From assembly GCA_965552115.1 (NCBI GenBank), contig CBEVQU010000020.1:1-13006 (forward strand): 13,006 nucleotides of DNA, written 5' to 3'. This DNA is from an uncultured bacterium. Its GTDB lineage: Bacteria > Patescibacteriota > Minisyncoccia > Minisyncoccales > CAZLLZ01. A program made the position numbers and the translations under genes. The notes below the pieces were generated by a model. It was not told where the DNA came from, searched no databases, and saw nothing but the letters and a program-made list of their open reading frames with translations. Positions 1 through 13,006 of this stretch are shown here, one piece after another. Each line of letters opens with the position of its first letter. Position 1 is the first letter of the stretch.

Positions 1-371
1 TCTTAGCTAAAGATAAAAAGGAAAGTATTCTTTCTCTCTCTGTTAAATTTTTTGCTTCTTGTAAAATGACAAAAGTAGTGAAAAAAGATAAATTTTGGCC
101 AAAACCTACTGTAGATTCTGCTTTAATAAAATTGAAAGTCAAAAAAAACCTTCCTAAAATAAAAAAAGAAGTTTTCTTTAAAATTTTAAAGGCAGGTTTT
201 CTTCCAAAAAGAAAAAAGTTAACTTCTAATCTTTCGAAAAATTTAAAAATTAAAAAAGAAATTTTAGAAAAAATATTTAAAAAATTAAAAATCAAAAATT
301 TAGAAAGAGCAGAAAATCTTTCTTTAAATCAATGGATAAAACTATCAAAAGAAATTCAAAATTTCAAATAA
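1..371 (+). CDS. rsmA: 16S rRNA (adenine1518/1519-N6)-dimethyltransferase RsmA/KsgA, C-terminal part (5' end lies outside the window; the open frame starts at nt 3)
   Basis: The frame is open from nt 3 and reads ...KESILSLSVKFFASCKMTKVVKKDKFWPKPTVDSALIKL. The F-x-P-x-P-x-VDSA-(V/L) motif is the conserved C-terminal signature of KsgA/RsmA methyltransferases. The Lys-rich helical tail is typical of the family. The M at nt 66 in the ORF track is an internal residue, not the start. Confidence 0.75.
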   Translation, partial: LAKDKKESILSLSVKFFASCKMTKVVKKDKFWPKPTVDSALIKLKVKKNLPKIKKEVFFKILKAGFLPKRKKLTSNLSKNLKIKKEILEKIFKKLKIKNLERAENLSLNQWIKLSKEIQNFK

Positions 372-2863
372 AATTTATTCTTATCTTCTCTCTTTTTTTA
401 TTTTTTTTATTTTCTTTGCCGAAAGTAGCTTTCTCCCAAGAGTGTACTCAAGCAAACGAAGGAGAAACAAGACCTTGCAATGACTGCGGAATTCAAATTT
501 GTGAATGCGTCCAACAAAATGGAAATATTAGTTGCAGCTGGTCAGAATGTCAAGGAGAAGGAGTCTGTTGTACAGAAAATGGATTTTTCAGAGGAACAGA
601 TTACATATGTGACACCAAATATAAAACTCAATATAAATGTGAAGGTACGAATTGTGGAGATGATATTTTAAAAAGAAATTGTCATAAAAATAGGTATTGT
701 TCCGGAAATAGTGCAGATTGTACAGGAAACTGGTCAAGTTGGATTTGTGGATCACCTTCCCTTTTTGAAGATTGTGAAAGTTGGCAAAAATGTAAAGATG
801 GGACAGAATGGACAGATACTCAAGATCAAGTTTGCCAATGCGAAGGAGAATGTTTAGACAAACCTGAAAATCCCAGATATTATTCCAATCCTAACTTTTC
901 CGATGTTCCAGAAAAAAACTTAGGAAATGAAAATCTCTTTCTACCAATAAAATTAGATTGGGACGATATCCCAGGATGGAGAAAAAAAGGAGGGCCGACT
1001 TCTTATGTAATTGAAATAGAAAATACAACCAAAAATACTTTCTCGCAAACTCTCACTAAGTCTGAATTTATACCTCCTGAACCATGTCTTTTAAAATCAG
1101 GGGAAAAACATATCTGGCGAGTAAAAGGGTGTTGTAATTCAGATGGAACAAATTGTGGAACAGAAAGCGAATGGACATTTACTACAAACTTAGCTCCTGA
1201 GCCTTATGCCCCTAAAGATCCAGATTGGGCCGGTCCGCAAGAAAAAAAAGAAGAAACTCTTTCTACCGAATTAAAATGGTGTAAAACCGAAAATGAAGAT
1301 TTTTACGAGCCTTTACAGGATGGCTATTTCCCTAGAATTTACAAAATCTTGATTTTTCAAGAAGGAGAATGCCATCCCTTTCAAAAACAAGGTGAGGAGT
1401 GTTTACCTTTCCAACTCACCAACAATCTCTCTCCAGGACTACTTTCACCAGAGCCTGTCTTTTCGAATAAAGATTATCCTTATTTTACAAAAGATACTTC
1501 TTATAGTTGGAAAGTTTCTGCATGTAAAGATCTAGCGGGGATAGAATGTACACCTTATAGTCAAGAATGGAAATTTTCCTTAAAAGAAGAAATTATCATT
1601 AAAACTCCTTCTCTTCTTTCCCCTCCAAATGATTTCCATGGAAAACACCCTGTTGGGCTACCTGTTTCTTTAAATTGGACAGAGCCTTTTGGTGCAAGAT
1701 CTTTTGAAGTTGAAATATACGAAAATAATCAAAGAATTCATCGGAAAATAGTTTTCGCTCCACCTCTTATTTTAGATTCTCCTACTCTTTCTTTAAATAC
1801 TTTATATAAATGGAGAGTTAGAAGTTGCTGGGACGAAGAAGGAGAAAATTGCGAACCGGACTGGTCGGGATTTTATTTTTTTAAAACTACCGGAGAACCT
1901 CCTATTCTTTTAAACCCAGCGAATAACACCTCTTTACATCTTCCTATCGAATTTAAATGGAGTGAGGTACCAGGAGTGAACTCATATGTCTTTGAAGTTT
2001 TAAAAAACGGAGAAACAATTGTAAATAAAATCTCTTCCGAGCCTCTTCTTTTTTTAACTTATCCTGAGATAAAACAAGGAATATCTTATCTGTGGCACGT
2101 AAGATCTTGTGCTAAACCATTAGGAAAAATCTGTGGTTCCTGGAGTTCTACTTTTCAATTCACTGTTTCACGACTTCCCCCTCCAACTCTCTCTCTTCCA
2201 AAAGATAAAGATAATATTCCACTCTTCCAAACTCCTTTTTTGCTAAAATGGCAGCCTCTTTCTGGAATAAAATTCTATAAATACAGAGTGATTTTTCTGA
2301 AAAAAGATGAAGCGGAAAAAAATGAAGAATGCAAAACAGGAAAAGAAATTGAAGGAATTACTAAGAATTTCTCTGTTTATCTTCCTTTAAAATGTTTGGG
2401 AGAATATGAATGGCAAGTAGTGGGATGTTTTGATGAAAAATGCACCGAAATAGGAGATTGGAGTAAAAAACAGACTTTTTCCATAACTCAAAAAATCACT
2501 TCTTCAGAAAAAAGAGGACTAGTTCCTTGTAATCTTCCTTATGACATTCCAGACACACCATGGGATGAAAGGGAAAAATGTGAAATTAAACATCTTTTTA
2601 TTTTAATAAATAACATTTTAAACTTTCTCCTTTGGAAAATAGCTCCTATTGTGATAATATTATTACTAGGAACCTCTGGTCTTCTATTCTACTTCGCTTC
2701 TCTCTCTGGAGGAAATGTGGAACTTATTTATAGAATAAAGAAATGGTGGAAAGTAATTATAATCGGGTATATTCTCATTTTTGGAAGTTGGTTAATAGTA
2801 AGTTATACTCTGCTTCTTTTCGGATATAGAGTAGGGATTTTCGGAGAATGGTGGAAAATTTAG
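332..2863 (+). CDS. Large secreted/surface protein of 843 aa. It has a signal peptide, a Cys-rich module of about 140 aa, five FN3-like repeats each with a conserved Cys pair, and a C-terminal two-helix pilin-like (VirB2/TrbC-like) membrane hairpin. Putative T4SS-associated adhesin.
   Basis: The N terminus MDKTIKRNSKFQIKFILIFSLFLFFLFSLPKVAFS|QE has the n-, h- and c-regions of a signal peptide. About 21 Cys fall in residues 37-175. Five repeats each begin P-x-L-x-P...(L/F)xW and end Y-x-W-(R/K/H/Q)-V-x-x-C...C...W-(S/K)...F-(T/S). The last 90 aa (nt 2591-2863) carry two hydrophobic helices separated by a charged loop. The ORF is long, uninterrupted and overlaps the rsmA 3' end by 40 nt. Confidence 0.8.
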   Translation: MDKTIKRNSKFQIKFILIFSLFLFFLFSLPKVAFSQECTQANEGETRPCNDCGIQICECVQQNGNISCSWSECQGEGVCCTENGFFRGTDYICDTKYKTQYKCEGTNCGDDILKRNCHKNRYCSGNSADCTGNWSSWICGSPSLFEDCESWQKCKDGTEWTDTQDQVCQCEGECLDKPENPRYYSNPNFSDVPEKNLGNENLFLPIKLDWDDIPGWRKKGGPTSYVIEIENTTKNTFSQTLTKSEFIPPEPCLLKSGEKHIWRVKGCCNSDGTNCGTESEWTFTTNLAPEPYAPKDPDWAGPQEKKEETLSTELKWCKTENEDFYEPLQDGYFPRIYKILIFQEGECHPFQKQGEECLPFQLTNNLSPGLLSPEPVFSNKDYPYFTKDTSYSWKVSACKDLAGIECTPYSQEWKFSLKEEIIIKTPSLLSPPNDFHGKHPVGLPVSLNWTEPFGARSFEVEIYENNQRIHRKIVFAPPLILDSPTLSLNTLYKWRVRSCWDEEGENCEPDWSGFYFFKTTGEPPILLNPANNTSLHLPIEFKWSEVPGVNSYVFEVLKNGETIVNKISSEPLLFLTYPEIKQGISYLWHVRSCAKPLGKICGSWSSTFQFTVSRLPPPTLSLPKDKDNIPLFQTPFLLKWQPLSGIKFYKYRVIFLKKDEAEKNEECKTGKEIEGITKNFSVYLPLKCLGEYEWQVVGCFDEKCTEIGDWSKKQTFSITQKITSSEKRGLVPCNLPYDIPDTPWDEREKCEIKHLFILINNILNFLLWKIAPIVIILLLGTSGLLFYFASLSGGNVELIYRIKKWWKVIIIGYILIFGSWLIVSYTLLLFGYRVGIFGEWWKI

Positions 2864-2882
2864 CTTCTCTATATGAAATAAT

Positions 2883-3533
2883 ATGAAATATGAAAAAAAC
2901 CTTCCCTATTTAATTATCATCTTTATATCTATTTTTCTACTTCTCACAATTAGTTATTGGAGGTATTTAAAATTAGAAGAATTTTCAAAAAATTTTTTTT
3001 CTCCTAAAGAAATTTTTCAGAAAGAACTTGAAGGTATTAAAGAAAATTTTCCTCTACAAGAGGGAAATAACCAAGAGGTCAAATTTAAAAGCCCGGATGG
3101 AAAATTGGAACTAATTTATTCTTCAAGTTGGAAGGAATTACCTGGAAATACATTAAAAGGATTCTCTCCTTATTTTAAAAGAGATGGAGTTTCTCTACTT
3201 CTTTTTGCTCAAAAAATGAATTTTACTGAAGGAACCATTGCTTTTCTTCTTGTCCAGGAAATTGAAAAAAAGCCAAAAGAGACTATAAAAGATCTCATTA
3301 ACGAAATAGAAAAGGAAGCAGAAAAAAAGAAAGAAATTTCACTTAAAGAAAAAGAGGCAGAAGTAGAATTTCTCTTTTCTAAAGAAAAAGGAATACCTTG
3401 TTTCGCAAGAGAAAAAATTTTAGATGAAGGTAAAAAGTTTTTCTTAGTCGCTATTTTCTCTGCAGTAAAAGACTGGCCAACTTACGAAAAAGAAGCTCAA
3501 AAAATTCTTGATTCTGTTCGACTAATAGAGTAA
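2883..3533 (+). CDS. Single-pass membrane-anchored hypothetical protein of 216 aa. It has an N-terminal TM helix and an extracytoplasmic domain. It could be a VirB8-like component, but this is unverified.
   Basis: The N-terminal hydrophobic segment LPYLIIIFISIFLLLTISYW is followed by a Lys/Glu-rich soluble domain. The gene is tightly packed in the same orientation as its neighbours. No family motif is recognised. Confidence 0.6.
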   Translation: MKYEKNLPYLIIIFISIFLLLTISYWRYLKLEEFSKNFFSPKEIFQKELEGIKENFPLQEGNNQEVKFKSPDGKLELIYSSSWKELPGNTLKGFSPYFKRDGVSLLLFAQKMNFTEGTIAFLLVQEIEKKPKETIKDLINEIEKEAEKKKEISLKEKEAEVEFLFSKEKGIPCFAREKILDEGKKFFLVAIFSAVKDWPTYEKEAQKILDSVRLIE

Positions 3534-3573
3534 GTATTTCTTTTTTTTATTAAATGAGATAAAATAAAAAGAG

Positions 3574-4389
3574 ATGAGTCTAAACTTCTCTAAAAAATAC
3601 TTATTACTTTGGATAGTTTTGGTTTTGCTTTTTTTTCATTCTGAAACTTTGGCTCTAGAAGTTTCTTGGCCTACTTCCCCAGCAGGAACTAAATTAACAG
3701 ATGACTCAACTCTCCCCGAATTAATAAAATACCTCTATGAGTGGGGAATAAGTATCACAGGAATAATTCTTTTTCTTTCTCTTATCTTAGCTGGTTTTCA
3801 GTATCTGACTTCGGTGGGAGAACCTATAAAACTCCAAGAGGCTAAAGATAGAATCCAATCTTCTCTATTAGGAGTAATTTTTCTTTTAGCATCTTGGATA
3901 ATTCTTAATTTAATAAATCCTGCTCTTACTACCTTTAAAAATGTAGAATTCAATCCTTTAGAATCAGTGGAAGGAGAAATCACCTTAGATATGGAAGACT
4001 TACAAAAGCCTTGTGATTTTGCTTATTTATATGAAAAACCAAACTATGAAGGGGGAAAGAAAAGAATAGAGCCGGGGGAGAAAGTGGAATTAGGAGGTGG
4101 TGAGGAATATCTCTCTATTAAATCTTTTTATAGAGTTGACCAATGCACTCAAGAAGAAATTAATAAAGGAGATTGTATTAAAGAAAACGAAGAATATTAT
4201 AAAAAAGGGGGGGCTTGTACTGTTCAATTATATGCTAAAAAGAAAGTAGGGTGGTGGATTTTTGCTAAAGAGAAAGCTTGTGGAGATAAAATTTCTGAGA
4301 CTCAAGCTGTCCATCCTGACTTCTCAAGAATTTCAGACAGGCAAGTAACCTGTATAAGATTAATAAAACATGAACTCGCTGAATTTTAA
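3574..4389 (+). CDS. Pilin-like (TrbC/VirB2-like) membrane protein of 271 aa with a C-terminal Cys-rich extracellular domain
   Basis: The signal peptide is MSLNFSKKYLLLWIVLVLLFFHSETLA|LEV. The mature N-terminal region has two hydrophobic helices around a charged loop (GISITGIILFLSLILAGFQYLTSVGEPIKLQEAKDRIQSSLLGVIFLLASWIILNLINP), which is the VirB2/TrbC architecture. This region is homologous to the C-terminal hairpin of the 843-aa protein. The C-terminal 150 aa contain 8 Cys. Confidence 0.65.
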   Translation: MSLNFSKKYLLLWIVLVLLFFHSETLALEVSWPTSPAGTKLTDDSTLPELIKYLYEWGISITGIILFLSLILAGFQYLTSVGEPIKLQEAKDRIQSSLLGVIFLLASWIILNLINPALTTFKNVEFNPLESVEGEITLDMEDLQKPCDFAYLYEKPNYEGGKKRIEPGEKVELGGGEEYLSIKSFYRVDQCTQEEINKGDCIKENEEYYKKGGACTVQLYAKKKVGWWIFAKEKACGDKISETQAVHPDFSRISDRQVTCIRLIKHELAEF

Positions 4390-6628
4390 TAAATTACATA
4401 ATAAACTAGCCTTTTTAAAAACCCCTTCTTTCCTATTTTTTGTATTTCTTCTTTTAATTTTATTCATTCCAAAGCCTTCCTCTGCTTTTATCGGAACGGG
4501 AATTTTTGATTATTTTGATACTGCTTTAGAAGGTGTAGAAGAAATTGCAGGTCCTTTAGCAAAAAAAGTAATTAGTATATTCTTTGTGTACGTTATAGGA
4601 CTCATTTTTCTAGGAACTTCTACTGTTCTTCTAGAACAAACTATGAATCCTGAATGGTTATCTATTTATGGAAATCCTCTAGTAGAAAAGGGTTGGAATT
4701 TCACAGTAAATATAGCAAACATGTTTCTTGTATTAGGCTTTATTGTGATAGCTCTAGGGATTATTTTAGGAAGAAGAAGTCTTCAGATTAAAAAAACTCT
4801 TCCTAGATTAATTCTTGTGGCCTTTTTGATAAATTTTAGTTTACTTTTAGTAGGGGCTTTATTAGACATTTCAAATATTCTCTATAATACTTTTTGGAAA
4901 GGAAACGAAAATCTTCCATCGCAAGTAATAGATTTATTAATAGGCAAAGGAGGAAGTGTCCTAACAAATATGATTAGTTGGTTAGGGGCTTTAGCGCTAA
5001 GTTTTTCTATACCCTTCGTAGGTCCCTTTGCTCAAATAGCTCTCGTCTCATATCTAATAGTTGCTTTTCCTACTATGCTCGCGTGGTTTTTTCAAATAAT
5101 TTGCTTTTTTATTGTAGGAGGAATCTTCCTCTTGTACGGTATCTTGTTTGCTTTCAGAGTTTTTATTGTTCAATTATTAGCTATCATTTCTCCTCTAGCT
5201 TTTGTAGCTTGGATTTTTCCTCAAACAGAAAGATATTTCAAAACTTGGTTTAGAATGCTTTTACAATGGATATTTTTAGGTATTTTCCTTATTTTCTTTC
5301 TCTCTTTAGGATTAGCAGGAGCAGTAGCTCTTTCTGAGAAATTAGGAATAGGAGAAAATCCTACTCCTATTCCTGGCTTAAGTTGGTTTAAAGTACATGA
5401 TTATTTCGTGTATTATCTCTTTTTAACTATCTATTTAGGAATAGCAGCTGCTCTTGGAAGAAGAGTTACACCTATGTTTGTAGATCAAGCTTTAGGAATG
5501 TTTAATCAAGCGAAAGGAGCTTTTGTAGGAAGAATAGGAGGAGTTAGTAAATATATAAAAGAGAGGGCGAGAAGATGGGCAGCAGAAAAAGAAAAAGAAT
5601 TTGAAAGAAAGGAAACACCTAAAAAAACAACTGCCAAAATATGGAGGGGGATTAAAAAAGGACTAACAGGAACCATAAAATGGGCCCACAGAATAAGAGG
5701 AACTACAATTGAAGCTGGGTTAGAGAGAGATATTCAAGAGAAAAAAGAAAAATTAAAAGAAAGATTCGGTAATAATGTAGAACAAGCTAGAATTTTTTAT
5801 GGTAAATCTTGGAGAATTCTCCCGCCTACAGATAAAATAGCATTTACTCTTTACGCTGCCGAGGTTAAAGGAGGAAAGGGTTTAGTAAAAATGGGAGAAG
5901 AAGAAGCAAAAGAGGGAATTAATTTAATAGGGAAATCTTATTCAAAAAAACTCTCCGATGTTTTAAAGTATAATGTGAAACTAATGAAAGAAATGCTAGA
6001 AGATATTAGTTACGGAGGAGTATCATTAGATATTTTAGTGCCAGAAAGAGAAAAAGATAAAGATGTTATAGAGCTTATGAAATTAGGATACGAAAAAGCA
6101 GACGCTATTAAAAAAGCTGCTTTTAAAAAAGTTATAGATGACTTAAAATCTAAAGACATTGAGAAACTTACAGATGATACTCTTACTAATCCTGAATTTC
6201 AAGAAGTAACAGCTCTTTTTAAACCTTGGGGATTTATAAGAAAAATTGGAGAAGAATGGGGAGCAGACATTTTAGATAAAATCCAAGAAACTGCAGAAGA
6301 AATAGGATTAGAAAAAATTGCAAAAAGTAATCCTTCCTTTTTAAGAGCTCCTTACACCCCTGGAGGCTCTATTTTTTTAAGAAGGTGGTTTTTGGAAGGA
6401 AGAGAATTAACTCGAAATGATATAGAAGAATTAATCCGAAGAGCCAAAAGAGGAGACGATGAAGAGAAACCACCATCTTCACCGAAACCACCGAAACCCC
6501 CAAAACCACCGCCCAAACCTCCAAGAGGAAGAGCAGGAGTAGGAGTTCCAATTTACTGGACAAAAGAAAAAAAAGAAGAGGAAGAAGAGGAAGAAGAACC
6601 GAGAGGAAGAGTAGGAGTGGGAGTTTAA
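4370..6628 (+). CDS. VirB6/TrbL-like polytopic inner-membrane protein of 752 aa with a long hydrophilic C-terminal domain and a Pro-rich/poly-Glu tail
   Basis: A signal-like N terminus is followed by about 8 predicted TM helices in residues 60-370. There is then a roughly 380-aa charged cytoplasmic domain, ending in PPSSPKPPKPPKPPPKPPRGRAGVGV...EEEEEEEEPRGRVGVGV. This layout is that of Gram-positive VirB6-like proteins such as TcpH/PrgH. The start overlaps the upstream gene by 20 nt, and internal Met codons could be the true start. Confidence 0.55.
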   Translation: MNSLNFNKLHNKLAFLKTPSFLFFVFLLLILFIPKPSSAFIGTGIFDYFDTALEGVEEIAGPLAKKVISIFFVYVIGLIFLGTSTVLLEQTMNPEWLSIYGNPLVEKGWNFTVNIANMFLVLGFIVIALGIILGRRSLQIKKTLPRLILVAFLINFSLLLVGALLDISNILYNTFWKGNENLPSQVIDLLIGKGGSVLTNMISWLGALALSFSIPFVGPFAQIALVSYLIVAFPTMLAWFFQIICFFIVGGIFLLYGILFAFRVFIVQLLAIISPLAFVAWIFPQTERYFKTWFRMLLQWIFLGIFLIFFLSLGLAGAVALSEKLGIGENPTPIPGLSWFKVHDYFVYYLFLTIYLGIAAALGRRVTPMFVDQALGMFNQAKGAFVGRIGGVSKYIKERARRWAAEKEKEFERKETPKKTTAKIWRGIKKGLTGTIKWAHRIRGTTIEAGLERDIQEKKEKLKERFGNNVEQARIFYGKSWRILPPTDKIAFTLYAAEVKGGKGLVKMGEEEAKEGINLIGKSYSKKLSDVLKYNVKLMKEMLEDISYGGVSLDILVPEREKDKDVIELMKLGYEKADAIKKAAFKKVIDDLKSKDIEKLTDDTLTNPEFQEVTALFKPWGFIRKIGEEWGADILDKIQETAEEIGLEKIAKSNPSFLRAPYTPGGSIFLRRWFLEGRELTRNDIEELIRRAKRGDDEEKPPSSPKPPKPPKPPPKPPRGRAGVGVPIYWTKEKKEEEEEEEEPRGRVGVGV
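6476..6625 (+). repeat. Low-complexity coding repeats at the 3' end of the VirB6-like gene. They comprise a 9-nt periodic (ccaccgaaa)n Pro-Pro-Lys tract, a (gaagag)n poly-Glu tract, and a 27-nt imperfect direct repeat (6521-6547 and 6599-6625, 24 of 27 identical).
   Basis: These can be read directly in the sequence: ccaagaggaagagcaggagtaggagtt versus ccgagaggaagagtaggagtgggagtt. They encode RGRAGVGV and RGRVGVGV. Confidence 0.7.
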
Positions 6629-6639
6629 AAGAAAAAAGA

Positions 6640-6656
6640 AGAGATAGAACATCTCT
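6640..6656. terminator. Weak candidate bidirectional hairpin between two convergent genes: stem agagat / atctct with loop agaac
   Basis: A 6-bp inverted repeat lies at 6640-6645 and 6651-6656, between the VirB6-like stop (6628) and the SPFH stop (6670). On the minus strand it is followed by a U-rich run (complement of aaaagaaaaaagaa at 6627-6639). The stem has only 2 GC pairs, so it is weak. Confidence 0.25.
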
Positions 6657-6669
6657 CCTGAAGATTTAT

Positions 6670-7860
6670 TTATTCTTTTAGTTTCTCTTTGATTTCTTCC
6701 ACTTCTTTTTGAAGTTTTGAAAGAGCTTCTTTAACTACTTTCCATTCTCTCTCTGAAAATCTTTCTGGTTCTTTACCAAAAACACCACGTAAAACTTCTT
6801 GTAGTCCAGGAATAGCTTGAACTGCAAGGGAAGCTGCTAGAGGACTCTTTTCTACTGCTTCACAAACTCTTACCAGTTCTCCAGTTCTTCCGAGTGCTTT
6901 TACTGTTTCATAGACTCTCTTTATTCTTTCTTTCTCAGCATCAGCTAAAGTTTCTATTCTCTCTTTTTCTCTCTCTGCTAAATATTTTTTCAATGTAGCC
7001 TCTCTATATTCTTTAGGTGGATTTATAGATCTTATTTCTATCTTTTTTAGTAAAATACCATATTCTTCCTCAAATTCTTTTAATATTTTTAATTTCTTCA
7101 ATCTTTTCTTTAACTCTTCAGCCATACTTTGAGGCTCTGAAATCCATCTCTCATAAGATTTCTGAGTGATAACATCTCTAGCTTCTGCATTACATCTTTG
7201 AATCACTGCTTCCAACCAATTTTGAATTCTAAACAAAGCTTTATAAGGATTGACTACTCTAATTGTATATAGAATCTCTATATTTAAAGGTAATCTATTA
7301 ATATCCTCTGCCTTCTCTATTTTACTATAGTAGACGTCTTCTTTTAGAAGAATATAATCTAAGACTTCCTTCTCATGATGAATAATCTTCCCATCTTCCT
7401 TTATTCCTGTCCAAGTAAAACCATAAATATATATATCTTTTATCGGCCAAAAACCATAGTATCTAAACCCTCCTAAAGGATGGCACTTTTCTTTGTATAT
7501 TTTAGCTCCAGGTGTCCCAAGAGGAACTTTTTTTCCATCTTTCATCGGAATTCCTTCTTTTACTACATTCCACTGTTCATCTAAAGTATATCCTTTCCAT
7601 TGAATTAGTATCTTTATCACTTGGTCTCCTTTTACTACCACCTTCGCTGTTCCTTCTTTTACAAAGGTAAAAAATAAATTGTCTTCTGCTAATCCAAAGT
7701 ATACCCAGGCAAAAAGCCCAATAGGAATGGTTACCCAAAACACTAGTAAAAAGAGTATTTTCCCTAGAGAAAAATCAAAAGCTTTCGAAAGTAGAGACCC
7801 AATATACAGAAGTACTTCTATTCCTACCCATTTTATTAAAATCTTTAAAGAACTAATCAT
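6670..7860 (-). CDS. SPFH/band-7 (stomatin/prohibitin/flotillin/HflK-C family) membrane protein of 396 aa
   Basis: N-terminal TM helices are followed by a core that fits the SPFH pattern (IEILYTIRVVNPYKALFRIQNWLEAVIQRCNAEARDVITQKS...). There is then a coiled-coil tail rich in AEREKERIETLADAEKERIKRV-type repeats, typical of flotillin/YqiK-like proteins. Confidence 0.55.
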   Translation of the reverse strand: MISSLKILIKWVGIEVLLYIGSLLSKAFDFSLGKILFLLVFWVTIPIGLFAWVYFGLAEDNLFFTFVKEGTAKVVVKGDQVIKILIQWKGYTLDEQWNVVKEGIPMKDGKKVPLGTPGAKIYKEKCHPLGGFRYYGFWPIKDIYIYGFTWTGIKEDGKIIHHEKEVLDYILLKEDVYYSKIEKAEDINRLPLNIEILYTIRVVNPYKALFRIQNWLEAVIQRCNAEARDVITQKSYERWISEPQSMAEELKKRLKKLKILKEFEEEYGILLKKIEIRSINPPKEYREATLKKYLAEREKERIETLADAEKERIKRVYETVKALGRTGELVRVCEAVEKSPLAASLAVQAIPGLQEVLRGVFGKEPERFSEREWKVVKEALSKLQKEVEEIKEKLKE

Positions 7861-7932
7861 ACTTTTAAAATACCACTTTATTAAAATTTGTCAACATTTT
7901 TCTCTTTTTCTTTTTTTTATATAATAAAACTA
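7861..7932. promoter_or_regulatory. Divergent AT-rich intergenic region. It probably holds promoters for the SPFH gene (minus strand) and the operon running from the small ORF through the PrgI-like gene to the VirB4-like genes (plus strand).
   Basis: This 72-bp non-coding gap lies between divergent starts. It contains TTGTCA at 7888-7893 and TATAAT at 7920-7925, but they are about 26 bp apart, which is not the canonical 17 bp. Promoter elements are therefore suggested but not cleanly resolved. Confidence 0.2.
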
Positions 7933-8328
7933 ATGTCAAAAGAATATTCAAAAGAAGAACTCTGGAAACTTTATAAAAATTTACCTGAAGAATTAAAAGA
8001 AGCTATTTTTTCTGAAAAAATAGCCGAAGATATTTATAGAATCTGTGAAAGATACGGAATTTCAGAGTGTGGCAAGCTTTCAAAAATTGTAGGTCATACA
8101 TTTTTAGGAATATTACCTCCCTCTGAAATTGAAGAAACTCTAAGAAAAGAGTTGTTACTTACTTCAGGGAAAGCAAAAAAAATTTCTAACGAAATTCATA
8201 GGTTTATTTTTTATCCTTTTAAAAAAGAGATTTCTTTGATCTATAGTAAAGAAATTGAGACCTTAAAAGAAGATACTAAAAAAGAAATTGAGAAAAAAAG
8301 AGATATTTATAGAGAACCTATAGAATAA
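7888..8328 (+). CDS. Hypothetical small cytoplasmic protein of 146 aa. An alternative start at the Met codon at 7933 would give 131 aa.
   Basis: This is an open reading frame with Lys/Glu-rich helical character and no TM segment. It is the first gene after the divergent intergenic region and is co-oriented with the VirB3/VirB4-like genes. No family is recognised. Confidence 0.5.
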   Translation: MSTFFSFSFFYIIKLMSKEYSKEELWKLYKNLPEELKEAIFSEKIAEDIYRICERYGISECGKLSKIVGHTFLGILPPSEIEETLRKELLLTSGKAKKISNEIHRFIFYPFKKEISLIYSKEIETLKEDTKKEIEKKRDIYREPIE

Positions 8329-8332
8329 TACA

Positions 8333-8740
8333 ATGGAATTTCAAGTGCCACAATTTATAGAAAGGGAACCTAAAATAATTGGGCCTTTTACTTTTAAGCA
8401 ATTTTTGTTTTTAGCAATTTGTGGAGGAATCTGTGCTATTTTCTATTTTATTTTTCCTAGATTCATTTTTTATGCTTTAACTGCTTTAGTAATGGGAGGA
8501 GCTATTGGATTAATGGTAGTTAAAATAGAAGGACAACCTATTCCAACACTTTTGAAAAATTTTTTCTTTTTTTCTACTTCTCCTAAGCTCTATTTATGGA
8601 AAAAGAAAGAGATTTCTCCTCCTATCATTAAAGAAGAAAGGAAGATAGAAAAAAAAGAAAAAGAAACTACTTTAAAACTGGGAGAAAAAAGCAGACTTAA
8701 AAATATATTTACTAAAGTTGAACTAAGCCAGAGAAAATGA
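8333..8740 (+). CDS. PrgI-family / VirB3-like small T4SS membrane protein of 135 aa
   Basis: The N terminus MEFQVPQFIEREPKIIGPFTFKQFLFLAICGG... matches the PrgI-family pattern (VP-x-x-I...K-I-x-GP(F/L)T-x-(R/K)Q) and is followed by two TM helices. It lies immediately upstream of the VirB4-like gene, preserving VirB3-VirB4 synteny. Its TGA stop overlaps the next ATG (ATGA), indicating translational coupling. Confidence 0.55.
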   Translation: MEFQVPQFIEREPKIIGPFTFKQFLFLAICGGICAIFYFIFPRFIFYALTALVMGGAIGLMVVKIEGQPIPTLLKNFFFFSTSPKLYLWKKKEISPPIIKEERKIEKKEKETTLKLGEKSRLKNIFTKVELSQRK

Positions 8741-9390
8741 GAAAAAAAATTCTTCCCTCAACTCAACAATTTCTAGAATATAAGCAAATTAAGGAAGGGA
8801 TAATTATTTTAAAAGACAATTCTTTAAGAGGGATTTTAATGGTTTCTTCTTTAAATTTTGCTTTAAAATCAGATGAAGAGCAAAAAGCTATTTTATACCA
8901 ATTCCAAGACTTTCTAAATTCTTTAGATTTTACTTGTCAAATTCTTGTTCAATCTAGAAGATTAAATATCACAGGTTATTTGGAGAAATTAGAAGATTTA
9001 GAAAAAGCTCAACAAAATGAGCTTTTAAAGCTTCAAACTAGAGAATATAGAAATTTTATTAAAGGACTTGTTGAAAAAGGAACTATTATGACAAAAAAAT
9101 TTTTTGTAATTGTCCCCTATTTTCTTTTAGAAGCTAAAGGAGTTATATCTCCTTTAGAAATACTAAAAGGGAAAGCAGAAGAAGAAATTTTAACTGAAGA
9201 AAAGTTTCAAAGGTATAAAGAACAACTTTGGCAAAGAATGGAATATGTTGCTTTAGGTTTAAGAAGATGTGGTTTGGAAGCTTTACCTTTAAATACAGCA
9301 GAAATTATTGAATTGCTTTGGGAATATCATCATCCAAAAGAAGCTGAATTTGGATATTATCCAGAATTACCTCCCGAAATCTTAAAATAA
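8737..9390 (+). CDS. VirB4/TrbE/PrgJ-family ATPase, N-terminal domain ORF of 217 aa, ending at an in-frame TAA
   Basis: ...GIIILKDNSLRGILMVSSLNFALKSDEEQKAILYQFQDFLNSLDFTCQILVQSRRLNI... fits the VirB4/TcpF/PrgJ N-terminal pattern (dG-s-l-x-il-x-v-x-g-x-N-x-x-L-x-seeE-x-x-x-i...fLnsL-x-x-x-x-Qi). It is in the same frame as the following ATPase ORF, separated from it only by TAA at 9388-9390. Confidence 0.6.
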   Translation: MRKKILPSTQQFLEYKQIKEGIIILKDNSLRGILMVSSLNFALKSDEEQKAILYQFQDFLNSLDFTCQILVQSRRLNITGYLEKLEDLEKAQQNELLKLQTREYRNFIKGLVEKGTIMTKKFFVIVPYFLLEAKGVISPLEILKGKAEEEILTEEKFQRYKEQLWQRMEYVALGLRRCGLEALPLNTAEIIELLWEYHHPKEAEFGYYPELPPEILK

Positions 9391-9393
9391 ATT

Positions 9394-11196
9394 ATGTTTA
9401 AAATTTTTAAAAAAAGAAAGAAAAAAGAATTAGAAAAAGAAAAATTATTTGAAGAAACAGTCTTGACTAGTAAAGATATTGTTGCTCCTCCATCTTTAGA
9501 AGTAAAGCCAAATTATTTAAAAATAGGTGAAAGATTAGCTAAAACTTTCTTTGTTTTCTCTTTTCCTAGATATTTAGGAATGGTTTGGACTTCCCCTTTA
9601 ATCAACTTGGATATCCCAATGGATATTTCTTTTTTTATTCATCCTCTTCCAACAGGAGAATTATTAAAGAAACTAAGAAAAAGAGTAACAGAACTCGAAG
9701 CTGAGATAGCAGAAAGAGAAGAAAAAGGACTTATAAGAGAGCCTGCTTTAGAGGTAGCTTATAGAGATTTAGAGCTTTTGAGAGAGAGGCTTCAAACTGC
9801 CCAAGAAAGAATGTTCAAATTAGGAGTTTATCTAACTGTCTATGCAGATACAGAAAAAGAAATGAGAGAATATGAGACAACTTTAAGGGAAATTTTTGAG
9901 GCAAGGTTAATTTATTTAAAACCTGCTCTTTATCAGCAAAAAGAAGGATTCATCTCTTGTCTGCCTTATGGACAAGATAAACTTTTAGTTCACACTACAA
10001 TGAATACAATGCCTCTCTCTTCTTGTTTTCCTTTTGTCTCTTTCGATTTAAGCTCAAATGAAGGAATATTGTATGGAATAAATTTACACAACAACTCTTT
10101 AGTTTTATTTGATAGATTTTCTTTAGAAAATGCTAATGAGGTTGTCTTTGGAGTCGCAGGAGGAGGAAAATCATATGCTATAAAGTTAGAAATTTTAAGA
10201 TATTTGATGGAAGGAGTAGATGTGATCGTAATTGACCCTGAAAATGAATATAAAACATTATGTGAAGCAGTAGGAGGGTCCTTTTTTAAAATCTCTCTTA
10301 CTTCTCCAAACCATATCAACCCTTTAGATCTACCTTCTCCAAGAGAAGACGAAGACCCAAAAGATGTCTTAAGATCAAATATCATAAATTTAGTTGGTCT
10401 TTTAAGAATAATGCTAGGAGGTCTAACTCCAGAAGAAGATGCTATTGTAGATAGAGCTTTAACTGAAACTTATGCAGCGAGAGATATCACTCCACAATCC
10501 GACCCTTCTACTTGGAAAGAGAACATTCCTCTTTTGGAAGATTTAGAATCTGTTTTAGAAACAATGGAAGGAGCTGAATCTTTAGTTAGAAGATTAAGGA
10601 AATTTACAAAAGGAACTTATGCTGATTTCTTTAACAACCCCACAAACATCTCAATGGATAAAAATTTTGTTGTCTTTGGAATTAGAGATATGGAAGAAGA
10701 ACTAAGACCAATGGCAATGTTTTTAATTATGAGATACATTTGGAATACTATAAGATCGAAACTTAAAAAAAGAATCTTAGTAGTGGACGAAGCCTGGTGG
10801 ATAATGAAATCAGAAGATGGAGCATCTTTTTTGTATGGAATATGTAAAAGAGCTAGGAAATATTGGCTTGGAGTAACAACTATTACCCAAGATGTAATAG
10901 ACTTTATGAAATCTGTCTATGGGCAACCTATTATTACAAACTCTGCCCTTTGTCTTCTTCTAAAACAAAGTCCTGCTACAATTGATATAGTCAAAAAAAC
11001 CTTTAATCTAACAGAAGAAGAAAAGTATATGCTTTTGGAAGCTGAAGTAGGAGAAGGTTTGTTTTTTGCTGGAAGAAAACACGTGGCTATAAAAGTTGTA
11101 GCTTCTTATACAGAAGATCAAATAATTACTACTTCCCCTGAAGAAATAATAAGAATTCGAAAAAGAAAAAAAGAATTAGAGGAAAATCTCCCTTAA
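9394..11196 (+). CDS. VirB4/TrbE/CagE-family T4SS ATPase, C-terminal ATPase portion of 600 aa
   Basis: Walker A is VVFGVAGGGKSYA. Walker B is ILVVDEAWWIM, and the hhhhDEAW form is a VirB4 hallmark. The LGVTTITQDVIDF motif is also present. Together with the upstream ORF the length is about 818 aa, typical for VirB4. Confidence 0.8.
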   Translation: MFKIFKKRKKKELEKEKLFEETVLTSKDIVAPPSLEVKPNYLKIGERLAKTFFVFSFPRYLGMVWTSPLINLDIPMDISFFIHPLPTGELLKKLRKRVTELEAEIAEREEKGLIREPALEVAYRDLELLRERLQTAQERMFKLGVYLTVYADTEKEMREYETTLREIFEARLIYLKPALYQQKEGFISCLPYGQDKLLVHTTMNTMPLSSCFPFVSFDLSSNEGILYGINLHNNSLVLFDRFSLENANEVVFGVAGGGKSYAIKLEILRYLMEGVDVIVIDPENEYKTLCEAVGGSFFKISLTSPNHINPLDLPSPREDEDPKDVLRSNIINLVGLLRIMLGGLTPEEDAIVDRALTETYAARDITPQSDPSTWKENIPLLEDLESVLETMEGAESLVRRLRKFTKGTYADFFNNPTNISMDKNFVVFGIRDMEEELRPMAMFLIMRYIWNTIRSKLKKRILVVDEAWWIMKSEDGASFLYGICKRARKYWLGVTTITQDVIDFMKSVYGQPIITNSALCLLLKQSPATIDIVKKTFNLTEEEKYMLLEAEVGEGLFFAGRKHVAIKVVASYTEDQIITTSPEEIIRIRKRKKELEENLP

Positions 11197-11651
11197 GGAT
11201 AAGGTTTTATCACCACTCTTCTTTTGGGTTCTCTCCCTACGCTTTGAGTAGTAACATCTCCCCTTTCTGCTAACTCTAAATGAATGATTCTTCTTTCATA
11301 AGGAGGCATAGGGGGTAAAATTTCCTCCTTTTTTGTTAAAGAAACTTTATCTGCTAAATTTTTAGCTAACTCTTTTAGATATTTTATTTTATTTTGTTTG
11401 TAATTGTTAATATCAACATCTATAAAAAAATGGTCTTTGATCTTTCTTTTCAAAATCGCTTTCAATAAATGCTGAATAGAAAATAAACTCTTTCCATTTT
11501 CTCCAATTAAAATTTGAGGCTCTTTTGATTCAACTTTTAAAAAAATAGTCTCTTGTTTTGGAGGAAGAAAAGTTATTTTTACAAAAGGATCTATAAAGTT
11601 AAAAAACTCATTTGTGATTTTTTTTATTTTTTCAAAATCTTCTTTGGTCAT
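11193..11651 (-). CDS. jag: Jag/KhpB RNA-binding protein with KH and R3H domains
   Basis: The KH-like segment ILIGENGKSLFSIQHLLKAIL carries the GxxG loop. The C-terminal R3H motif is ERRIIHLELAERGDVTTQSVGREPKRRVVIKP. The gene sits downstream of yidC as in the conserved operon. Confidence 0.8.
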   Translation of the reverse strand: MTKEDFEKIKKITNEFFNFIDPFVKITFLPPKQETIFLKVESKEPQILIGENGKSLFSIQHLLKAILKRKIKDHFFIDVDINNYKQNKIKYLKELAKNLADKVSLTKKEEILPPMPPYERRIIHLELAERGDVTTQSVGREPKRRVVIKPYP

Positions 11652-11660
11652 TTTCTTTTT

Positions 11661-12353
11661 TTATTTTGATAAAAGATAATATTGGAAAATGGTGAAAAAA
11701 GTGCTTGTTATCCAATATAAAGCGACAGCTGCCGGAATTTTTAAAAGAATAAGAAAGGTAAAAAAAGGAAAAAAATATAACATTTGTTTTTGAAAAACTT
11801 GAGAAATTTCTTTTTCTTTCTCTAAAGAAAACTGGGAAGTTTGTCTTGTTTGAAAATATTGAGAAATTCCAGCTATTAAAGCTAAAAAAATACTAGGCTT
11901 TGAAAGATCCAACAAACCTAAAAAAAGAGGAGGAATTTCCTTTATTTGAGGGACAAAAGAATATAAATTTATCATAGATTGAGGAGAAATACCTCCCCAA
12001 AAAACTTTTAAAAGAGCAATTAAAATAGGAAGTTGAATTAAGAGAGGTAAGCATCCTGAAAATGGATTAATTTTTTCTTTTTTATATAATTCCATTAAAG
12101 CTTTAGCTTGTTTTTCTTTTTGGTCTTTATATTTTTTCTGAATTTCTCTTATCTTTGGCTGAAGCTCTGACATTTTCTTTTGAGATATTAAAGATTTAAG
12201 AGTGATTGGATAGAGAATAATTTTTACTATTAAAGTCAAAGCAATAATTGAAATTCCTAGATCATGAGGAGGAAGAAAATAATAAATAATTATAAGTAAA
12301 TTAAAAAGAGGTTTATATAAAATTGTGTAAAATAAAAAGGTAAAAATCTCCAT
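11661..12353 (-). CDS. yidC: Membrane protein insertase YidC (short Gram-positive/CPR-type form, 230 aa)
   Basis: LQPKIREIQKKYKDQKEKQAKALMELYKKEKINPFSGCLPLLIQLPILIALLKVF matches the YidC/Oxa1 core (MQ-x-lqPe...iqeKYk......qEmm-x-LYk-e-x-gvNP-x-x-GClP-x-LiQmPi). The protein has multiple TM helices. Confidence 0.85.
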   Translation of the reverse strand: MEIFTFLFYTILYKPLFNLLIIIYYFLPPHDLGISIIALTLIVKIILYPITLKSLISQKKMSELQPKIREIQKKYKDQKEKQAKALMELYKKEKINPFSGCLPLLIQLPILIALLKVFWGGISPQSMINLYSFVPQIKEIPPLFLGLLDLSKPSIFLALIAGISQYFQTRQTSQFSLEKEKEISQVFQKQMLYFFPFFTFLILLKIPAAVALYWITSTFFTIFQYYLLSK

Positions 12354-12354
12354 A

Positions 12355-12564
12355 TTAAGGTAAATCTACCCCTCCTTTAGAAAAAGGGTGGCATCTTAAA
12401 ATTCTTTTCAAAATTAAAAAAACGGCCTTTCTTTTATTATATTTTTTCAAAGCTAAGATAGAATATTCAGAACAAGAAGGATAAAATCTGCAGTGTTTTC
12501 CTAAAAAAGGAGAAATAAATAACTGATATTTTCTTAAAATGGAAATTAAAAATTTATTTTTCAT
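12355..12564 (-). CDS. yidD: Membrane protein insertion efficiency factor YidD
   Basis: The sequence ISPFLGKHCRFYPSCSEYSILALKKYN...LKRILRCHPFSKGGVDLP carries the canonical YidD motifs (CRF-x-PSCS-x-Y, RCHP, GG-x-D-x-P). It lies between rnpA and yidC as expected. Confidence 0.9.
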   Translation of the reverse strand: MKNKFLISILRKYQLFISPFLGKHCRFYPSCSEYSILALKKYNKRKAVFLILKRILRCHPFSKGGVDLP

Positions 12565-12907
12565 TTTTAAAAATTTTCATTTTTCTAAAAAGGAACTCAA
12601 CCATCTTTTCTATTTCCTGATAATTTTTCTCCTCCAATCCAGGTAAAGCAATGAAAATTCCATCTATGCCTTTTTTTAAAAAAGGAATTTTTTTTCTCAC
12701 AATTTCTCTCAGTCTTCTTCTGACTTTATTTCGAACTGTCGCTTTTTTAGATACTTTTTGAGAAACTATAAAAGCAAACCGACAATCTTCATCCCCTCTC
12801 TGATTAAAGACTTTTAGGACTAAATAATCTTTTTTCGCTCCTTTCCCTTTCTTAAAAACCCTCTCGAAATCTTTTTTCTTTTTTAATCTATTCTTTTTAG
12901 GGAGCAT
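12554..12907 (-). CDS. rnpA: Ribonuclease P protein component RnpA
   Basis: The basic 117-aa protein carries the RNR-like motif VSKKATVRNKVRRRLRE. It follows rpmH on the same strand in the classic rpmH-rnpA arrangement. Confidence 0.85.
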   Translation of the reverse strand: MLPKKNRLKKKKDFERVFKKGKGAKKDYLVLKVFNQRGDEDCRFAFIVSQKVSKKATVRNKVRRRLREIVRKKIPFLKKGIDGIFIALPGLEEKNYQEIEKMVEFLFRKMKIFKNEK

Positions 12908-12911
12908 TTTT

Positions 12912-13006
12912 CTAGACTGTCAATCTTTTCCTCTTTTTTCTTCTCCTTCTAGAAAGAATTTTCCTTCCAGATTTTGTTTTTTGCCTTTTTCTAAAACCGT
13001 GTTTCT
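12912..13006 (-). CDS. rpmH: 50S ribosomal protein L34 (RpmH), C-terminal 30 codons plus stop. The N terminus lies beyond the window end.
   Basis: Minus-strand translation from the window edge gives KHGFRKRQKTKSGRKILSRRRRKKRKRLTV*, which is the conserved L34 C terminus (..THGFR.R..T..GR.VL..RR.KGR..LTV). The stop codon is at 12912-12914 (plus-strand cta). Confidence 0.85.
   Translation of the reverse strand, partial: KHGFRKRQKTKSGRKILSRRRRKKRKRLTV

Follow-up and report, generated by a model that had tools for sequence, protein, structure and literature searches.

A protein of 843 amino acids (aa) encoded in a 13,006-nucleotide (nt) stretch of DNA from an uncultured member of the Patescibacteriota (contig CBEVQU010000020.1 of assembly GCA_965552115.1, positions 1 to 13,006 of the forward strand; hereafter the window) is probably a modular VirB2-like pilin of the Patescibacteria-type type IV secretion system (T4SS), a monoderm, MPF-FATA-like (mating pair formation, FATA class) system. 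It would act as the host-contact arm of that machine and not as a separate adhesin adjoining it. The window has a G+C content of 26-36% and holds a Gram-positive-type set of T4SS genes flanked by rsmA (3' end), jag, yidC, yidD and rnpA. From its N-terminus, the protein, which we call the modular pilin, is made up of a signal peptide, a cysteine (Cys)-rich head, a stalk of five fibronectin type III (FN3)-like repeats (R1-R5) and a pilin module, and its open reading frame (ORF) is intact (Table 1).

The last 125 residues (719-843) constitute this pilin module, which contains two hydrophobic helices and was absent from the first-pass annotation of this DNA. PF18895 (T4SS_pilin) matches residues 758-825 with 20.6 bits (E 4.8e-4) and is also matched by 22 of 40 full-length relatives (E<0.01), the best of which (P0038) reaches 29.5 bits, above the 26.6-bit Pfam cut-off; another homologue, P0020, carries the NCBI name "pilin". 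At L001, the locus of a near-identical sister strain on a 530-kb ENA contig, we found a 157-aa PF18895 pilin that shares 38% identity with the module across 82 aa (E 5e-16). Both proteins share a G-(F/L)-V-P-C neck motif and a C-x-x-(C/K)-H-x-F motif before helix 1, so that the modular pilin looks like a small pilin with ~680 residues inserted between signal peptide and neck. Direct comparison of the module with the neighbouring 271-aa pilin gave a weak match (E 0.076). The small pilin of L001 (1179-1652) has a short Cys-rich N-terminal segment of its own and lies ~8 kb upstream of the cluster; a 157-aa pilin of this kind is probably also present just outside the window, as a candidate major subunit.

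Structural and conservation data point in the same direction. An AlphaFold2 model built on a 40-sequence alignment places the helical hairpin at residues 752-791 and 796-829, and a hydrophobicity plot gives segments at 755-793 and 805-832 besides the signal-peptide segment at 9-36. Net charge across the family is -1.8 before helix 1 and +2.0 in the loop between the helices, a pattern that fits the predicted N-out topology, in which the loop is cytoplasmic, and that would be anticipated after an exported ectodomain. No other regions of the protein are as well conserved as neck and pilin (46-50% mean pairwise identity), in which C733, T742, E746, C750, H754 and W820 are invariant, and these invariant polar and aromatic residues are more than a passive anchor would need. 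The module is thus homologous to bona fide PF18895 pilins such as that of Candidatus (Ca.) Southlakia epibionticum, which share its G-L-V-P-C neck, C..K-H motif, two helices and G-x-W-W tail, and which likewise have a Sec signal peptide and VirB6/PrgI/TrsD/VirB4 neighbours near oriC (PMC12102498, PMC12857230). It has the predicted N-out two-helix hairpin and lies among homologues of VirB4, VirB6 and VirB3. Ordinary PF18895 pilins are small single-module proteins of ~100-160 aa, whereas here the module occupies the last 125 of 843 aa and is preceded by ~680 additional residues comprising the head and five FN3-like domains. The first-pass annotation had placed the protein next to a T4SS-like machine: T4SS genes do adjoin it, but it is not merely adjoining, since its C-terminus is itself a PF18895 pilin module.

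At its other end, the modular pilin has a Sec/signal peptidase I (SPase I)-type signal peptide, as previously proposed, with a basic n-region, a hydrophobic core spanning residues 9-36, an AFS|QE cleavage site and no lipobox. The gene starts within the 3' end of rsmA/ksgA (66..371), with an overlap of 40 nt that is identical in L001, and no Shine-Dalgarno-like sequence was seen at the usual distance before it. An NCBIfam search returned no family for the protein, and a search of PDB sequences with the whole protein returned no match.

Between head and neck, five W-x-V-x-x-C-type motifs, one per repeat, occur at residues 261, 391, 492, 586 and 692 and read IWRVKGCC, YSWKVSAC, YKWRVRSC, YLWHVRSC and YEWQVVGC; R2 is longer than the other repeats by an insertion of 35-40 aa. 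In profile-profile comparisons (hhalign) based on sub-alignments from 39 homologues, all ten repeat pairs were mutually homologous (probability 97.3-99.8%, E 2e-11 to 1e-27), and control comparisons of the repeats with the N-terminal head or the C-terminal region gave nothing. Within the modular pilin the repeats are only 29-48% identical in local alignments and therefore reflect old duplications; a recent internal duplication was rejected given these identities and the orthology of each repeat across the family. The AlphaFold2 model has a mean predicted local distance difference test (pLDDT) score of 83.8, which rises above 90 for almost the whole of residues 196-718, and it shows seven strands in each repeat. 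Foldseek comparison with the PDB returned tandem FN3 ectodomains as best matches (E down to 1.4e-15), including the gp130, OSM, LIF and leptin receptors, PTP-delta, fibronectin and contactins, and the top 50 matches were mostly FN3 arrays. FN3 domains are marked by a strand-B Trp and a strand-F Tyr, to which the conserved L-x-W and Y-x-W-x-V motifs of the repeats correspond. By sequence, the nearest Pfam family is Ig_Rha78A_N (PF25788), which is matched by 28 of 40 family members (E<0.01) and with scores above the cut-off in some relatives (41.5 and 36.2 bits), the modular pilin itself staying under the 27.4-bit cut-off at 19.8 bits; the classical fn3 family (PF00041) is matched in only 1 of the 40. 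"FN3-like" is used here as a statement of the modelled fold.

This predicted fold is shared with bacterial Ig_Rha78A_N domains and with the FN3 ectodomains of gp130, fibronectin, contactins and PTP-delta, from which the repeats differ in that each adds a conserved Cys pair. In an alignment of 147 family members, the pairs 267/275, 398/406, 499/507, 593/601 and 699/704 are 97-100% conserved. In the model, strand F ends with the first Cys of each pair and the second is in the F-G loop, so that the pair would close the F-G hairpin. Five tandem repeats, an FN3-like beta-sandwich and an added Cys pair per repeat had all been claimed from inspection of the DNA alone, and the repeat-pair comparisons, the model with its Foldseek matches and the 147-member alignment, respectively, agree with these claims. 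The closing motif proposed at the same time, Y-x-W-(R/K)-V, fared less well: five such motifs are present, but R or K occupies that position in only three of them.

A profile search of 1.84 billion representatives identified 1655 related proteins (E<=1e-30), and domain architectures were counted across 177 sequences. The large majority (162) end in the pilin module, and in 141 of these the repeats number exactly five and run from R1 to R5; the remaining pilin-bearing relatives are mostly short sequences without R1, probably fragments. Variation in repeat number among orthologues, which the first-pass annotation had suggested looking for, was not seen; the number is fixed at five, which excludes a variable-number repeat protein, and it is instead the head that varies. 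The other 15 sequences (including P0043, P0095, P0107 and P0139) are proteins of 1400-3800 aa with 13-33 tandem R3/R4-like repeats and no pilin module, which suggests that the same Cys-stapled, FN3-like repeat is a wider building block of giant surface proteins. Residues 36-100 of the modular pilin were found in only 12 of 40 homologues, and the region preceding the stalk ranges from <100 to ~1000 residues among relatives. Two of these, P0005 and P0055, carry a Peptidase_C39_2 (58.5 bits) and a Peptidase_M23 domain (56.9 bits), respectively, before a five-repeat stalk and pilin base, the peptidase replacing, or being added to, the Cys-rich head. As far as sequence comparison goes, stalk and pilin base are shown to be constant across the family, and the head to be exchangeable, being a Cys knob in the modular pilin and an M23 or C39-like peptidase in relatives.

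Comparison with the sister strain revealed that the modular pilin is also mosaic at a much finer scale. L001 is 99.66% identical (nt) to window positions 1-869 and 99.83% identical to positions 8321-13006, and PrgI, TrsD, VirB4, Jag, YidC and YidD are 100% identical in aa sequence. Between these flanks, window positions 870-8320 (7.45 kb; counterpart L001 10539-18016) have no nucleotide-level match to L001. The left breakpoint falls at residues 179/180 of the modular pilin, exactly at the head/stalk boundary, and the right one 12 nt upstream of prgI. Signal peptide and head are accordingly 100% identical between the two strains, and the repeats, neck and pilin only 27-52% identical, with similarly low values for p216 (27%), the second pilin (39%) and the VirB6-like protein (32%). 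The SPFH gene has no recognisable similarity to the Band_7 gene found at that place in L001, and the genes inside the cassette are ordered differently, SPFH preceding p146 in the window and p124 preceding Band_7 in L001. This mosaic could be an assembly chimera, but the ORF is intact, and both types of junction occur in independent proteins, P0002 joining the head to the NPRYY linker and P0003 joining it to the L001-type linker. We read it from these alignments as homologous replacement of a cassette that would hold co-adapted, exposed parts of the machine. The swapping of stalk and pilin along with the second pilin and VirB6 argues for physical co-adaptation of the modular pilin with the T4SS.

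We collected 26 related loci, namely 24 from a scan of species-representative genomes (23 genomes, one metagenome-assembled genome (MAG) giving two) and two reached through P0001 and P0020. The neck-plus-pilin sub-alignment served as query for the scan, the whole-family alignment being too divergent. The scan loci are labelled mostly as Ca. Nealsonbacteria, and also as Yanofskybacteria, Paceibacterales and Parcubacteria, with some MAGs labelled "uncultured Ca. Saccharibacteria". In the window, the modular pilin is followed by p216, the second pilin, the VirB6-like gene, SPFH, p146 (146 aa), PrgI, TrsD, VirB4, jag, yidC, yidD and rnpA, and the conserved order (rsmA, modular pilin, p216, pilin, VirB6, p146, PrgI, TrsD, VirB4, jag, yidC) is kept, with the modular pilin first, in the 24 scan loci and in both the P0001 and P0020 loci. 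Across loci, VirB4 is 68-76% and TrsD 57-67% identical, whereas the modular pilin (26-41%), VirB6 (25-35%) and p216 (26-37%) are far less so, which indicates a much higher rate of evolution in the exposed parts than in the motor. The window contains no relaxase or coupling protein, matching published surveys.

Taken together, these results suggest how the modular pilin may work. The Sec signal peptide directs export of the N-terminal 700 residues, and the pilin module would then dock the protein into the T4SS (VirB6 channel) and/or a small-pilin pilus, as a low-copy tip or decorating subunit. The five-domain rod could carry the head past the cell wall or surface layer (S-layer), to a distance of ~20-25 nm from the membrane, a rough figure of our own that assumes ~4 nm per FN3-like domain. 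The head may then bind the surface of the host cell, and the peptidase-headed relatives would instead cut it; an adhesin role is thus plausible. Fast divergence and cassette exchange of the stalk/pilin/VirB6 block would be expected if these are co-adapted, surface-exposed parts under diversifying pressure. It is possible, if rather less than probable, that in these monoderm, ultrasmall bacteria of the Nealsonbacteria/Paceibacteria group a VirB2-type T4SS filament or channel carries a specialised subunit with an exchangeable head on a fixed five-FN3 stalk, the stalk/pilin/VirB6 block being swapped as a 7.5-kb cassette between strains that are otherwise identical, and that this subunit acts as a host-range determinant of an episymbiont in the manner of a tail fibre.

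Several observations weigh against this assignment and mechanism. The modular pilin's own PF18895 score, at 20.6 bits, is below the Pfam cut-off of 26.6. A profile of the pilin module matched nothing among all PDB sequences (E<=10), and hence no solved VirB2 or TraA pilin; because no solved pilin is detectable by sequence, the link to VirB2 is drawn from the Pfam family and from published work (PMC12102498). Subunits that each bore a 700-residue N-terminal cargo would not pack into a VirB2-type helical lattice, so that polymerisation is possible only if we assume a rare or tip subunit. No patescibacterial T4SS pilus has yet been imaged, and a review cites only a "potential" to make pili (PMC12857230). 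The head has no relative among solved structures and no sequence relative, so that ligand binding by it is putative; a homologue search with the head alone returned nothing, but it also missed P0001, whose head is identical, and is therefore uninformative. Neither the 13-kb window nor the 10-kb flanks of two related loci, L001 and L002, showed an enzyme for disulfide formation. Patescibacteria of this kind, moreover, live mostly in anoxic habitats.

Some of these points would be accommodated by a static, membrane-anchored adhesin or spacer, in which the pilin-derived hairpin serves as an anchor only, never enters a filament, and attaches the cell to, or spaces it from, its host or its own S-layer independently of T4SS activity. 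Two hydrophobic helices suffice for anchoring, the large N-terminal cargo would be hard to place in a VirB2-type lattice, and these bacteria have no demonstrated pilus (PMC12857230). We nevertheless consider this explanation unlikely: conservation within the protein is highest in neck and pilin, whose invariant non-hydrophobic residues exceed what a generic anchor needs, the gene always comes first in the T4SS cluster, and it is exchanged between strains jointly with the second pilin and VirB6. A quite improbable alternative is an envelope-remodelling scaffold standing in for the missing VirB1, whose stalk would deliver a wall-active head (a wall-binding one in the case of the Cys head) to the bacterium's own or the host's wall for passage of the T4SS channel. 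Such a role is consistent with the relatives in which this stalk and pilin base bear a Peptidase_M23 or Peptidase_C39_2 head, but peptidase heads are a minority of the family, and no catalytic or wall-binding domain was detected in the head of the modular pilin. The preferred reading is a T4SS pilin carrying a host-contact arm.

The modular pilin is rich in Cys. Of 40 Cys in total, exactly 21 lie within residues 36-176 (14.9%), in agreement with the roughly 21 in 140 residues noted at first pass, and 19 lie outside this region; 18 lie in residues 177-740. The neck pair 733/750, which would close the neck by a disulfide, is invariant in the 147-member alignment. The ectodomain has further Cys pairs within and between domains, and these other Cys are lost jointly among relatives: 347/357 (phi 0.89), 148/168 (phi 0.80), 103/154 (phi 0.61) and 667/688, and in all seven cases of C317 loss C268 is lost as well. 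Of 133 complete relatives, 97 have an even and 36 an odd Cys count in the mature protein (binomial p 1.2e-7). The count for stalk and neck alone is usually odd (mode 19), which implies one bridge between head and stalk. Near-invariant Cys, joint loss of pairs and mostly even counts provide good, though indirect, support for a fully disulfide-bonded ectodomain (the first-pass annotation had predicted a disulfide-stabilised one), and the disulfides may give the rod rigidity and protease resistance.

In an anaerobe without Dsb machinery, Cys might instead be expected to bind metals (zinc or iron-sulfur clusters). The C-x2-C and C-x-C spacings in the head (C49/C52, C57/C59, C168/C170/C174) and the lack of any Dsb or VKOR gene in the window or the L001 and L002 flanks would fit this explanation, which is nonetheless very improbable, as Cys are lost in pairs and not in fours, total counts are strongly biased to even, the repeat pair would close a single F-G hairpin at i and i+5 to i+8, a typical disulfide geometry, and the Cys are extracytoplasmic, behind a Sec signal peptide. 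The invariant Cys pairs imply extracytoplasmic disulfide formation in these anaerobic, genome-reduced bacteria; a literature search on disulfide machinery in Patescibacteria returned nothing relevant.

Fusion of a pilin to a functional module has a counterpart in modular type IV pilins, e.g. PilB and PilC of Streptococcus sanguinis, in which a pilin polymerisation module is joined to an adhesive module and the adhesin is thus borne by the filament. The design principle is alike, but this is an analogy only: pilin fold and machinery are unrelated, and type IV pilins have a class III signal peptide, cleaved by a prepilin peptidase and followed by a hydrophobic alpha1-N helix, and a C-terminal extra module, whereas the modular pilin has a Sec/SPase I signal and N-terminal extra modules. 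A type IV pilin was rejected accordingly, given the absence of a class III signal peptide, the Sec-type N-terminus (AFS|QE) and the C-terminal position of the hydrophobic helices. A proposed role in target contact is common to the T4SS adhesins VirB5 and CagL at diderm tips and the LPXTG-anchored PrgB of enterococcal conjugation, from which the modular pilin differs in being anchored through its pilin module. Both an LPXTG/PrgB adhesin and VirB5 were rejected, as the C-terminus (...GIFGEWWKI) has no LPXTG and Pfam and NCBIfam found no PrgB or VirB5 domain.

The T4SS-like system is widespread among Patescibacteria (PMC12102498, PMC12857230). The patescibacterial T4SSs surveyed to date are MPF-FATA-like with VirB2-like pilins, usually lack relaxases, had no detected adhesin, and are encoded near oriC beside KsgA, RnpA and DnaA (PMC12102498). 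The T4SS and its pilin array are essential for epibiotic growth of S. epibionticum, the single species tested (PMC12857230), and T4SS pilins are highly expressed in Yanofskybacteria parasitising Methanothrix (PMC10936435). Full-text literature searches (Patescibacteria pilin with fibronectin type III; "modular pilin" with VirB2) found no description of a fusion such as the one proposed here, nor is one mentioned in the main survey paper. A pilin with an N-terminal, 680-residue, disulfide-stapled rod and an exchangeable head would be a concrete candidate for the host-contact element. If confirmed, it would be the first VirB2-family pilin shown to be modular, and would carry the idea of modular pilins, established for type IV pili, over to pilins of the VirB2 type. 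The exchange of the cassette at strain level, for its part, points to a machine part under host- or phage-driven diversification.

Table 1 Features of the modular pilin gene and of the surrounding T4SS cluster (positions in the window, nt).
Feature	Position	Strand	Characteristics
Modular pilin, whole gene	332..2863	+	843 aa
Signal peptide, aa 1-35 (MDKTIKRNSKFQIK-FILIFSLFLFFLFSL-PKVAFS, cleavage before QE)	332..436	+	Sec/SPase I type; hydrophobic segment 9-36, sequence inspection
Cys-rich head, aa 36-179, 21 Cys	437..868	+	Beta-hairpin-rich knob
Linker, aa 180-195 (NPRYYSNPNFSDVPEK)	869..916	+	N-P-R-Y-Y-x-N-P motif conserved; left breakpoint vs L001 at aa 179/180
FN3-like repeat R1, aa 196-286	917..1189	+	Cys 252, 267, 268, 275
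FN3-like repeat R2, aa 287-419, inserted loop ~aa 317-380	1190..1588	+	Cys 317, 347/357, 398/406
FN3-like repeat R3, aa 424-520	1601..1891	+	Cys 499/507; seven predicted strands; weak Ig_Rha78A_N match aa 483-519
FN3-like repeat R4, aa 521-613	1892..2170	+	Cys 593/601
FN3-like repeat R5, aa 614-718	2171..2485	+	Cys 667/688 and 699/704
Neck, aa 719-751 (GLVPC...TPWDEREKCEIKH)	2486..2584	+	N-terminal segment of pilin module; Cys 733, 750 invariant, n=147
Pilin helical hairpin, aa 752-843	2585..2860	+	Two hydrophobic helices and short basic loop; matches T4SS_pilin PF18895
p216	2883..3533	+	216 aa, conserved; one N-terminal transmembrane segment; no family match
Second pilin	3574..4389	+	271 aa; N-terminal PF18895 (31.7 bits, above cut-off) and C-terminal Cys-containing globular extension
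VirB6/TrbL-like polytopic membrane protein	4370..6628	+	752 aa; long charged Pro-rich C-terminal tail
SPFH/Band-7 gene	6670..7860	-	Opposite strand amid T4SS cluster
PrgI (VirB3-like)	8333..8740	+	
TrsD/TraC-like	8737..9390	+	217 aa; equivalent to VirB4 N-terminal domain
VirB4-like ATPase	9394..11196	+	600 aa; CD1110 family (377 bits, cut-off 325)
Divergent cassette, 7.45 kb	870..8320	.	Stalk and pilin of modular pilin, p216, second pilin, VirB6-like, SPFH, p146

The neighbouring genes have features of their own. p216, possibly a partner in assembly, lies directly 3' of the modular pilin gene in 13 of the 26 related loci. The C-terminal extension of the second pilin (~155 aa) has conserved Cys (PC...C...GGxC...CG...CIRL), its orthologues ranging from 260 to 406 aa, and includes a segment, LYEKPNYEGGKKRIEPGE, reminiscent of a beta/gamma-crystallin Greek-key motif; Pfam found nothing there. 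The C-terminal half of the VirB6/TrbL-like protein is long and hydrophilic and ends in a low-complexity tail (PPSSPKPPKPPKPPPKPP) with a duplicated RGR(A/V)GVGV motif and a run of eight Glu. Few of the related loci have an SPFH gene (58% identity in L007), whereas the split of VirB4 into a TrsD/TraC-like protein and an ATPase occurs in all related loci.

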